Source of the DNA: Rhabdochlamydiaceae bacterium
GTDB taxonomy: Bacteria > Chlamydiota > Chlamydiia > Chlamydiales > Rhabdochlamydiaceae
Assembly: GCA_047459655.1 (NCBI GenBank)
Contig: JAJREF010000001.1
Coordinates: 640,001-704,000 of the forward strand
Direction of reading: 5' to 3'
Length of the DNA: 64,000 nucleotides
The notes beneath the pieces were generated by a model that saw only the letters and a list, made by a program, of their open reading frames with translations, ran no database searches and had not been told where the DNA came from. This document shows positions 59,565-61,782 of the stretch, piece by piece; the stretch's first letter is position 1, and the number at the start of each line of letters is the position of its first letter. The translations under genes and the position numbers were made by a program.

Positions 59565-59633
59565 TTAAGGAACCTCTGGACAAGCCATTTGCCAGATCTT
59601 GGTGCCAATTTTTGCGAATACTAGATTTTTCGA
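59565..59633 (-). repeat. Right half of a family-1 MITE forming the intron 3' exon
   Basis: Minus strand tcgaaaaatctagtattcgc...ttgtccagaggttccttaa corresponds to 706-774. Confidence 0.88.
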
Positions 59634-61565
59634 ATCGCGTAGGAGGGAGCCTTTAGGCTCCCGTCCTCGCACACCACCGTACGTACGGGACCGTATACGG
59701 CGGTTCCTGATCACTATGACCCAGCTCGCACTATGTTCATCATAGGTGTGTATCCCATTGCTTCAATAACCCTATTTGATACCCCTTTGTGCATGCAGTA
59801 GGTCTTTGCCATTCTCCATGGCCCTTTACTACTATATGCATGCTTTCTGGCGGTGCTATCTTTAAGTCCAAGTTCTTCTAGTCGTTTATGTCGCGTTCTA
59901 GGTTGCTTCCACTGTCGCCAGAGGATAGACCTTATCTTGCGCCTTATCCATCCATCTAATTTCTCAAAGATTCCTCGTTCATCCGCTATGCCAAAGTAAT
60001 TGGCCCATCCTCTTGTAAGTGGCATGAGTTGTTTTCGGATGCTATTCGTTAACTTGCTGCCTCTCATCTTTTTAGTGAGTCCTTTTACTTTGTCTTTAAG
60101 GCGTTTCACTCGGCTTTCGTGAACTACAATCCGATGCGGCTGTTTTTCCGCTTTGAAGGTAAACCCTAAGAACGTGCGCTTCCATGGGTTATCCACAGCA
60201 CTTTTCTGCTCATTGACTTTGAGTTTGAGCTTCTTAGTCAGATATCTGACTGCTGCTTCCATTACGCGTTTGCCTGCTCTTTCTGTTTTAACATAGATAT
60301 TGCAGTCATCAGCATATCTTGAAAATCGCAGTTTTCTCTTCTCTAATTCTCTATCAAAGTCGTCTAGCATGATGTTGGATAGTAATGGTGAGAGGGGCCC
60401 GCCTTGCGGCGTGCCCTCTTCTGTTACTTTTACAAGTCCATCCTCCATGACTCCTGCTTGGAGATATCTCCTGATCAGAAGGAGGATTTTCTTGTCCTTC
60501 ACTCGTCTTGCTACTCTTGCCATCAACATGTCATGGTTGACTTTATCGAAGAACTTTTCCAGGTCGATATCTACAACCCATGTGCATCCTTCTTGGATGT
60601 ATGCTTGGGCTTGTAGCACGGCTTGCTGAGCGCTTCGATTGGGTCTAAATCCATAGCTATGTTGGGAGAATGTTGGATCGAATACAACGACTAGCTCTTG
60701 ATGTATGGCCTGCTGGATGATCCTATCCATGACGGTGGGGATTCCCAATTGTCGAACCCCTTTTCCATCTGGTTTTGGTATTTCCACCCGTCTTACGGGG
60801 CTTGGCAAGTATTTTCCATCAAGGATGTCTTGTTTGATCTTGGGCCATTTCTTATGCATGACCTCTTTGATCTCTTCTGTGGTGATACCATCTATTCCAG
60901 GTGCTCCTTTGTTACGTATTACCGCTTCAATGGCTTTCTGGATATTGCTATCCTTCGTGACTCCTTCTATCGTTGCGATAGGGGCGTCATAAGGATCGCT
61001 AGGTAGGAGAGATGTTTTCCTTTCTGCCTTGTCAACTGTCGCACTTTTCAGAAGCTGTGAGGGACTCTCTCCCGGGTCTTCTGTTTGAGCTTTGGATTTT
61101 TCCTCTTTTCTGCGATTATTTGTTGTCATAGAAGTTTGGTTCTCTCCTTTGTTTTCATGTTCGGACCTTCAGTGTCTTAAAAAAAACACCTACTACGTCG
61201 TCTGCTGACTGCTGTACCGTTCGCGTCGTCTCTCCGAGACACCGCTAGCGCTGTCGTTCCCCTCTTTTGTCGGGTACTAGTCAGGCGTGGATACAGCTCT
61301 CACCGGGTAATTCATCATACTTTCCTACTAGCCTGTCGCATCTACATGAACCCTTCCGAGCAAGTATAGGACTTTGGATTCCAGTGCATCCTTATCCTAG
61401 GGTTACTGCCTCATATGCGCTTCCTATTCGTCGGGCCAGCATTTTTGTATACGGCTTTCTTCAGATCCCGCTTCACGGCGGGCACCCTTGCCTTCTCTAA
61501 TGGTTCTCCTTGCTAGAGTCCATAGAGGACTTTCACCTCCTAGTGTGATGACATACCGGTCGCAC
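59634..61565 (-). mobile_element. Group II intron, class C (IIC)
   Basis: 5' GTGCG at 61565; short DV ccgccgtatacg-gtcc-cgtacgtacggtgg with CGC triad; DVI ends cctacgcgAT at 59634; inserted just after a hairpin. Confidence 0.9.
59714..61129 (-). CDS. ltrA: Group II intron reverse transcriptase/maturase without endonuclease domain
   Basis: NKGAPGIDG, RQLGIPTVMDR, GTPQGGPLSPLL, RYADD, FLGF, X domain RGWANYF. Confidence 0.95.
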   Translation of the reverse strand: MTTNNRRKEEKSKAQTEDPGESPSQLLKSATVDKAERKTSLLPSDPYDAPIATIEGVTKDSNIQKAIEAVIRNKGAPGIDGITTEEIKEVMHKKWPKIKQDILDGKYLPSPVRRVEIPKPDGKGVRQLGIPTVMDRIIQQAIHQELVVVFDPTFSQHSYGFRPNRSAQQAVLQAQAYIQEGCTWVVDIDLEKFFDKVNHDMLMARVARRVKDKKILLLIRRYLQAGVMEDGLVKVTEEGTPQGGPLSPLLSNIMLDDFDRELEKRKLRFSRYADDCNIYVKTERAGKRVMEAAVRYLTKKLKLKVNEQKSAVDNPWKRTFLGFTFKAEKQPHRIVVHESRVKRLKDKVKGLTKKMRGSKLTNSIRKQLMPLTRGWANYFGIADERGIFEKLDGWIRRKIRSILWRQWKQPRTRHKRLEELGLKDSTARKHAYSSKGPWRMAKTYCMHKGVSNRVIEAMGYTPMMNIVRAGS

Positions 61566-61782
61566 ACAGAAGCCAAACTCTTGGCTTCTTTCATAGGCAA
61601 AAAAAAGCTTCCCCGTCGGGGAAGCTTTTGTTTTGCCGATGACCGGCTCCGGGCTACCCGCCGGTTCGTGTCCTGCATGACACTTCACTTCGAGTCCGGA
61701 CAGAAGCCAAACTCTTGGCTTCTTTCATAGGCAAAAAAAAAGCTTCCCCGTCTGGGGAAGCCTTTGTTTTGCCGATGACCGG
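61566..61782. repeat. Direct duplication (~81-83 bp: 61566-61646 and 61700-61782) of the tRNA-Leu 3' end, terminator and hairpin, with a 53-bp spacer
   Basis: acagaagccaaactcttggcttct...aagcttccccg...gccgatgaccgg present twice. Confidence 0.9.
61732..61765 (-). terminator. Intrinsic terminator of tRNA-Leu (duplicated at ~61598-61630)
   Basis: Minus strand gcttcccc-agac-ggggaagc followed by a T-run. Confidence 0.8.

Follow-up and report, generated by a model that had tools for sequence, protein, structure and literature searches.

We analysed a 64,000-nucleotide stretch of the genome of a Rhabdochlamydiaceae bacterium (hereafter the window; G000:C1:640001-704000) and found in it a group II intron, of class C by all features tested, whose two flanks are mismatched. 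The 5' exon consists of a hairpin (H) behind tRNA-Leu(CAA), the 3' exon of the right half of a palindromic miniature inverted-repeat transposable element (MITE). In another lake metagenome, a close relative of the intron lies inside this MITE, inserted at the exact nucleotide where the MITE half of the window begins. Homologous recombination of one intron copy resident in the MITE with another linked to the tRNA gene would account for the hybrid locus, and we give this origin an even chance. The genome, G000, is a metagenome assembly of 1.61 Mb in 5 contigs with 41% G+C, 81.6% complete with 5.8% contamination. The window or part of it is held by 24 public runs, mostly in small shares, which are labelled as freshwater, lake, aquatic or riverine metagenomes.

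The intron and its encoded protein are located as follows.
59634..61565, minus strand: group II intron, assigned to class C (IIC), 1,932 nt, 5' GTGCG .. CGCGAT 3'
59714..61129, minus strand: intron-encoded protein (IEP), 471 amino acids, reverse transcriptase (RT) and maturase with YADD present, an intact open reading frame (ORF) in domain IV

The 5' G of GTGCG is position 61565 (GTGCGACCGG..) and the last T is position 59634 (..CCTACGCGAT). The Rfam models RF02001 and RF01998 matched at 61311-61482 (123 bits) and 61164-61246 (47.9 bits), and the D5-D6 model RF00029 was found with a permissive threshold at 59634-59705 (40.7 bits; gathering score 40). The RF00029 match ends exactly at 59634, in agreement with the proposed intron 3' end. 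The combination of group II ribozyme domains, with D5-D6 at the 3' end, and a GUGYG-type 5' end (GTGCG) is a feature of class C. The only Pfam domains in the IEP are RVT_1 (E 3.4e-41) and GIIM (E 1.4e-19), without an endonuclease domain. Among solved structures, the nearest to the IEP is the RT of GsI-IIC (6ar1, E 9.1e-140) and the second is 7uim (E 1.8e-109), which is named only 'Group II intron reverse transcriptase/maturase' and which we take to be the RT of a IIC intron, whereas LtrA, of class IIA, is a far weaker relative (E 7.4e-42). According to the accessible part of one survey, every class C IEP is without an endonuclease domain (PMC4424553). The ribozyme models, the endonuclease-less IEP and the ranking of RT similarities all support class C, as had been proposed in an earlier sequence-only reading of this DNA. 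The nearest RT relatives in named genomes (71-86% identity) all belong to metagenome-assembled environmental Chlamydiae, and the next, at about 50% identity, to Bacillota and Actinobacteria.

The 3' exon was compared with an intact copy of the MITE, designated family 1, that lies near the other end of the window.
59565..59633, minus strand: 3' exon, corresponding to about positions 102-170 of the 171-nt family-1 MITE, its right half (BLAST)
605..775, plus strand: intact family-1 MITE used as reference, with an empty site; hairpin 681-701, GAGT 702-705, T 706

The exon sequence tcgaaaaatctagtattcgc.., read from 59633 down to 59565, matched the intact copy in the interval 560-777 with 90.7% identity over 75 nt (BLAST, E 1.8e-22, query 141-215). 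The central hairpin of the reference is GCTAACAT-GCAGA-ATGTTAGC, the site GAGT|T falls at 705/706, and the comparison confirmed that the 3' exon begins exactly after hairpin and GAGT, as the sequence-only reading had stated. Family 1 is a short, non-coding palindromic unit of 171 nt with inverted-repeat ends TTAAGGAGCCTCTGGACAAG / CTTGTCCAGAGGTTCCTTAA; the label MITE rests on this shortness, the lack of coding sequence, the copy number and the terminal inverted repeats. G000 contains 64 full-length copies aligned at at least 84% identity, nearly all of which keep the central hairpin. In the 61 copies whose right arm could be placed by script, the hairpin is followed by NAGT|T in 55.

Contigs of four public runs were aligned to the locus and to the intact family-1 copy; the run nearest to the window is called X1. 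Another lake metagenome, X4, contained an intron about 97-98% identical to that of the window (for example, 18 differences in 722 nt). Contig 27 of X4 (89 nt, depth 9.4) covers MITE positions 657-705, that is, left half, hairpin and AAGT, and then continues with GTGCGACCGGTATGTCATCACACTAGGAGG, joining the MITE to the first 40 nt of the full-length intron; the same joint was also seen from the intron side. On contig 24 (430 nt, 59606-60035), the intron 3' end is joined to TCGAAAAATC.., 28 nt of the MITE right half. Contig 29 (61241-61466) differs by four letter changes and one gap, none of them in the loop of exon-binding site 1 (EBS1). Contigs 27 and 24, both short k-mer contigs, show that the X4 population carries the intron at (A)AGT|T within a family-1 MITE, and the phosphodiester of this insertion is the exact nucleotide where the window's MITE half begins. 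A copy with the MITE left half as its 5' exon, at the site predicted by the sequence-only reading, is thereby found.

On the 5' side, the exon turned out to be part of a repeated module behind the tRNA gene. The first feature below was called by ARAGORN and the others were read from the sequence.
61769..61853, minus strand: tRNA-Leu(CAA) (Rfam tRNA 55.2 bits)
61700..61782, minus strand: copy A1, the real tRNA-Leu 3' end, terminator T1 and hairpin H, with H-GT followed by segment X (empty site)
61647..61699, minus strand: segment X, 53 nt, between A1 and A2
61566..61646, minus strand: copy A2, tRNA-Leu 3' end (13 nt), T1 and H, 81 nt
61566..61589, minus strand: 5' exon hairpin H and GT, with the intron directly after

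That the 5' exon is a non-MITE hairpin downstream of tRNA-Leu had been recognized before, and H with its GT does lie behind tRNA-Leu(CAA) and a terminator. What had been missed is that tRNA 3' end, T1 and H occur here twice in tandem and that the 5' exon is the second copy. The arms of H are AGAAGCCAA-GAGT-TTGGCTTCT, with a DNA fold of -9.1 kcal/mol and 2 nt between stem and insertion point, and the only two copies of H in G000 are those at this locus. A2 and A1 are 96.4% identical over an 83-nt high-scoring segment pair, with three differences including one in homopolymer length. Segment X begins with CCGGACTCGAA, the reverse complement of the tRNA-Leu T-loop and T-stem, followed by the hairpin GTGTC-ATGCAG-GACAC and then CGAACCGGCGGG... 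An 11-mer of X matches 61779-61789 on the opposite strand; beyond this inverted T-loop match and chance 11-14-mers, no other source for X was found in G000. A decayed MITE left half was considered for X and ruled out, as a family-1 profile (nhmmer) finds nothing in it. No Rfam family matched in the H-X module.

H and X together match genome G014 at 87% identity (E 5e-15) and, more weakly, G018, G006, G011, G003 and G032. X is homologous across genomes and is not filler. The module layout was found as six units at five other places, all behind tRNA genes of environmental chlamydiae, each identified by reading out its layout.
G014: one unit behind tRNA-Phe
L105:772-919: one unit behind tRNA-Phe
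G006: two units in tandem behind tRNA-Leu(TAG)
G018: one unit behind a tRNA 3' end at a contig start
L107:1384-1475: one unit behind tRNA-Lys
Coordinates recorded for the module also include L185:1485-1583, L186:77-200 and L187:1302-1546. The module consists of a terminator, a hairpin H (AGAAGCC..GGCTTCTGT) and a structured X of 50-110 nt, in some cases in tandem. In each unit read, X opens with the reverse complement of the T-loop and T-stem of the local tRNA (near-exact in three), continues with GTGAAG or a near variant and a hairpin whose stem varies among units by changes on both strands, and ends ahead of a copy of the local tRNA's 3' end. One reading of this arrangement is that the H-X module may be a miniature element integrated in tRNA 3' ends. 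In all intact modules seen, H-GT is followed by X and not by MITE sequence, and it is exactly this H-GT point that the window intron occupies.

The module bears on an alternative origin, a single aberrant retromobility event. The intron would have reverse-spliced into a family-1 MITE, and the cDNA would then have switched to an unspliced donor transcript comprising tRNA-Leu trailer, H and intron, so that a copy of the donor's 5' exon, extending to the tRNA T-loop, took the place of the MITE left half. RTs of IIC introns readily switch templates, and A2 begins within the tRNA 3' end (about position 57-61), beside the T-loop, with its three differences from A1. However, the same layout of tRNA 3' copy, terminator, H and X stands behind other tRNAs in G014, G006 and G018, where no intron DNA was found, so that A2 need not be a retro-copy. 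X is moreover a conserved, non-MITE sequence, and bacterial retrohoming is described, in the portion of PMC2504315 available, as proceeding without exon co-conversion. We consider an origin by template switching quite unlikely.

The locus could also be an assembly chimera, in which identical tRNA-linked and MITE-linked intron copies were collapsed and their flanks taken from different molecules. G000 is a five-contig metagenome assembly with the completeness and contamination given above, and no X1 contig was seen across the 3' junction. On the 5' side, one X1 contig runs straight from 61565 to 61700, leaving out 134 nt (41 letters are shared), and 61584-61667 is covered by no contig of X1; the 5' side thus differs between data sets. 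This skip may reflect a strain that lacks the extra module unit, or a k-mer path that the 41 shared letters caused to collapse. The same contig nevertheless provides independent confirmation of the 5' junction to the tRNA-Leu trailer, and X4 confirms the type of the 3' junction. Furthermore, the intron lies within a 752-kb contig that traverses dozens of MITE copies, none of the 10 contig ends carries a second intron copy or a dangling end of intron or MITE-1 sequence, and the 53 nt of X, being conserved, could not have been invented by an assembler. A chimera is accordingly very unlikely in our view.

The target preference of the intron was examined through its EBS1, located in the following element.
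61380..61387, minus strand: EBS1 loop GCACUGGA, a terminal hairpin loop in the Rfam D1D4-3 structure

In this structure the loop belongs to a hairpin, GGAU-GCACUGGA-AUCC, at intron positions about 175-190. In four introns of G000 and related genomes, loop positions 3-6 vary together with the last exon bases. For a broader set, 160 loci with RT relatives from metagenome and genome collections were reduced to 65 with a BLAST-placed 5' end and to 56 non-duplicate introns, five of them from G000 and its relatives, and every alignment column was scored against each exon position. The best columns were these.
exon -1 with intron 181: Watson-Crick in 93% of 56
exon -2 with intron 182: Watson-Crick in 88% of 56
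exon -3 with intron 183: Watson-Crick in 75% of 56
exon -4 with intron 184: Watson-Crick in 48% of 56

All other columns paired in at most 43%. The covariation over 56 introns identifies EBS1 of the window intron as ACUG (A181 C182 U183 G184; 61385-61382), for which the ideal target is (C)CAGU. This EBS1 is short, with no pairing signal at exon -5 or -6; in the text seen of PMC2504315, class C introns follow the rule of a short pairing between EBS1 and intron-binding site 1 (IBS1) of 3-4 bp, with no EBS2-IBS2. Another EBS1 candidate, GCGACAGGCUAGUAGG, was rejected, since in the Rfam structure it forms the 3' strand of a long stem. The sequence-only reading had aimed at both EBS1 and EBS3; EBS1 was mapped and pairs with the AGU of the MITE, whereas for EBS3 the first 340 nt contain no column that pairs with 3' exon +1 above 45% (43 introns). 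The MITE-1 site (C)GAGU pairs at -1, -2 and -3 (pattern 1110), as do the sites of 16 of the 56 introns, while pattern 1111 was seen in 19.

G000 contains one full-length copy of the intron (BLAST) and no further RT of this kind (tblastn), and the intron is thus present at low copy number. Two identical ORF-less relatives of 691 nt (C3:40903-41593 and C5:319182-319872; BLAST) match the window intron with 81% identity in the first 447 nt and 97% in the last 91 nt. They have their own EBS1, GUAG, with exons ending in ..CCTAC, and 3' exon +1 is T in one and A in the other. As G000 has a single RT gene of this kind, these introns would need trans mobilisation by the IEP of the window. A second palindromic MITE, family 2, holds the C3 copy directly behind its central hairpin, GTAGGTCATATT-GGCT-TAATATGACCTAC; the flanks of this copy are contiguous (99-100% identity) in empty copies such as C1:420900-421068, with no duplication or loss, and it occupies the only filled family-2 copy in G000. 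A family-2 MITE at C2:181787-182055, which is nested in a family-1 MITE (at ..TCTAGTATT|), represents an empty copy of the C3-intron site. For the C5 copy, the insertion site is spanned by a GC-rich palindrome within a third repeat family. This copy was considered as a second case of mismatched flanks and rejected, for a single imperfect palindrome, ATCGAGTTAGGTGGGGCC-TTAC-GGCCCCGACCTAC|TCGAT, spans the site. Intron relatives thus do enter palindromic repeats in G000.

Many of the related introns lie inside longer palindromes, with the outer arms flanking them, as at loci L024-26, L062, L071/L086, L033, L066, L079, L117 and L164. Tandem IIC introns also occur in the clade (L035, in the 3' exon, and L109:3124), where the start of a second intron, GTGCGACCGG.., serves as the 3' exon of the first. 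In G002, of the same genus, the last 127 nt of the intron are present at 99% identity at a contig start (G002:C24:1-127, locus L005) and are followed by a different 3' exon, CATTGAGAGG.., so that in this species the intron is located elsewhere. The X4 contigs, the C3 copy in a family-2 MITE and the pairing of EBS1 with AGU together support homing into MITE hairpins, as the sequence-only reading had held. Its further proposal, that a multicopy MITE serves as a distributed homing platform, is not borne out in G000: homing into the MITE stands, but none of the 64 full-length family-1 copies in G000 is occupied. That such a system would promote rearrangements, as the same reading held, is conjectural.

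We suggest the following course of events for the window locus. Three to four EBS1-IBS1 pairs (ACU/AGU) would have guided reverse splicing of the intron, or of its ancestor, into single-stranded DNA behind the MITE-1 hairpin. Another copy would have inserted after H behind tRNA-Leu, probably nearby and in the same orientation. RecA-type recombination between these 1.9-kb direct repeats would then have deleted one intron and the intervening DNA, leaving H|intron|MITE right half as a single copy. The break between tRNA-linked and MITE sequence coincides exactly with both intron ends, and its position in the MITE is the phosphodiester used in X4; both point to an intron-mediated origin. A deletion between direct repeats is expected to leave one hybrid copy, in agreement with the one copy found, and if the two copies were close and direct, the deletion would cost only non-coding DNA. 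The tandem introns of this clade also fit such a course. Homologous recombination among intron copies has been observed in E. coli (PMC3792343), and a scheme of two sites plus recombination, with terminator and attC copies, was proposed for IIC-attC introns by Leon and Roy in 2009 (as cited in PMC7923331).

Several observations weigh against this course of events. Neither a parent copy nor the reciprocal product is present in G000; the H|intron|X form was seen nowhere and the MITE-resident type in X4 only, where its support is limited to two short k-mer contigs. The MITE|intron 5' junction had no match in JGI metagenome contigs and none in 401 genomes of the order at up to 1 mismatch, and the 3' junction is the one that no X1 contig bridges. 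The vacancy of all 64 family-1 copies in G000 counts on the same side, as does a fourth palindromic family, whose central hairpin is followed by CCAGT|T, a perfect 5-bp match to EBS1. This family has four good copies, and five or more of its perfect sites were seen, all of them empty.
C1:596183-596303: family-4 copy
C1:186773-186893: family-4 copy
C2:89949-90070: family-4 copy
C2:82531-82652: family-4 copy

The two proposed sites have their own irregularities. Among the related introns, 51 of 56 exons fold into a hairpin (5 do not), with the insertion site at 0 nt from the stem in 31 and at 1 nt in 8; the MITE-1 site, at 4 nt, is at the far end of the range (2 of 51). The H site UCUGU pairs at -1, -2 and -4 and has U-U at -3. 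This pattern, 1101, is unique to the window intron, and position -3 is unpaired in just 6 of the 56 related introns, which makes insertion at H atypical. Judged by its sequence, the MITE site is a better and more typical target than H, despite the 4-nt stem distance.

Synteny speaks neither for nor against a deletion. The features next to the intron on its 3' side are given here with their positions.
58761-59507, plus strand: upp (ORF)
59510..59545, no strand assigned: hairpin terminator common to convergent upp and the intron-bearing strand (read from the sequence)
In G001, G002 and G006, upp has other neighbours, and tRNA-Leu(CAA) is at contig ends, 22-207 nt from the end (G001:C127:22-106, G002:C1:207-291, G006:C3:105-190). 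The latter suggests that repeated DNA is found downstream of tRNA-Leu(CAA) in these genomes as well.

The mismatched flanks could also have formed without recombination between introns, by a single insertion after H-GT into an existing junction, if directly behind H there lay a family-1 MITE cut short at its fragile centre in an earlier event. Intron-less copies consisting of a right half do exist in family 1: C1:496288-496358 starts at about unit position 146, and C1:736162-736244 and C2:124923-124990 start inside the hairpin. H is also a good hairpin, with which EBS1 pairs at four of five positions counting G-U. However, this explanation requires two coincidences, namely truncation at the exact nucleotide used by the X4 intron and at the exact IIC insertion point after H, and in all intact modules seen H-GT precedes X rather than MITE sequence. 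We regard it as unlikely. Recombination between a tRNA-linked and a MITE-linked copy, as the sequence-only reading had it, is the most economical account of the locus, while the single copy and the lack of parent and reciprocal product in G000 leave it no more than likely.

These data define a variation on known intron behaviour, and a modest one. A wider interpretation, which we advance only tentatively, is that in environmental chlamydiae a IIC lineage is at home both in the hairpins at the centre of palindromic MITEs and in that of a mobile mini-element of tRNA trailers, that recombination between its copies fuses unrelated loci, that the window locus is a natural, caught-in-the-act equivalent of the recombination step proposed for the genesis of integron cassettes, and that the tRNA module (T1, H, X pairing with the T-arm, and the tRNA 3' copy) is a new small integrative element. 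As every part and mechanism involved is already known, the locus adds only a limited amount to our understanding. The hairpin rule of class C introns is here extended to dispersed repeats of palindromic form, in which an intron finds many places to land without harm. In addition, the mapped EBS1 (positions 181-184, covariation in 56 introns) predicts targets for the whole clade, and the recombination step becomes testable with a defined pair of sites, the MITE-1 hairpin with GAGT|T and H with GT.

The window intron resembles the terminator-type IIC introns, such as B.h.I1 of Bacillus halodurans and GsI-IIC, which in the excerpted text of PMC4424553 share with it a small ribozyme, an endonuclease-less IEP, insertion after a hairpin and a short EBS1-IBS1 pairing; it differs in that its hairpins are the centres of palindromic repeats and a tRNA-trailer module, not gene terminators. 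The target specificities of class C named in that text are homing sites, terminators and attC, and MITEs are unmentioned there. Among reports on group II introns in MITEs or repetitive extragenic palindromic (REP) sequences, only one table row was found, in a search that did not cover subscription papers: in Pseudomonas putida KT2440, 2 of 9 group II intron copies are associated with REP sequences (PMC1525189). The likeness is in the location in a palindromic repeat; in the part of that source available, the case is a table entry without junction analysis, intron class or EBS pairing. The IIB2-type introns of Thiomargarita are not placed in MITEs in the text examined.

The closest parallel is with the IIC-attC introns and the cassette model of Leon and Roy, in which, as far as the accessible sections of PMC7923331 and PMC3001079 describe it, one lineage is proposed to use both a structured repeat and a terminator, the two being joined by recombination. 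In the flanks of the window intron, the tRNA trailer and the MITE half, neither attC nor integron was found in the sequence read, where no dedicated integron search was made. Here a MITE takes the place of integron and attC, and a tRNA trailer that of a protein gene; the target motif is AGT|T, compared with the TTGT/T reported for attC. The window locus shows the joined form of the Leon-Roy model, in that a trailer hairpin following a terminator makes up its 5' side and half of a structured repeat its 3' side; its mixed flanks would make it a natural example of what that model predicts, two hairpin sites joined via one intron.

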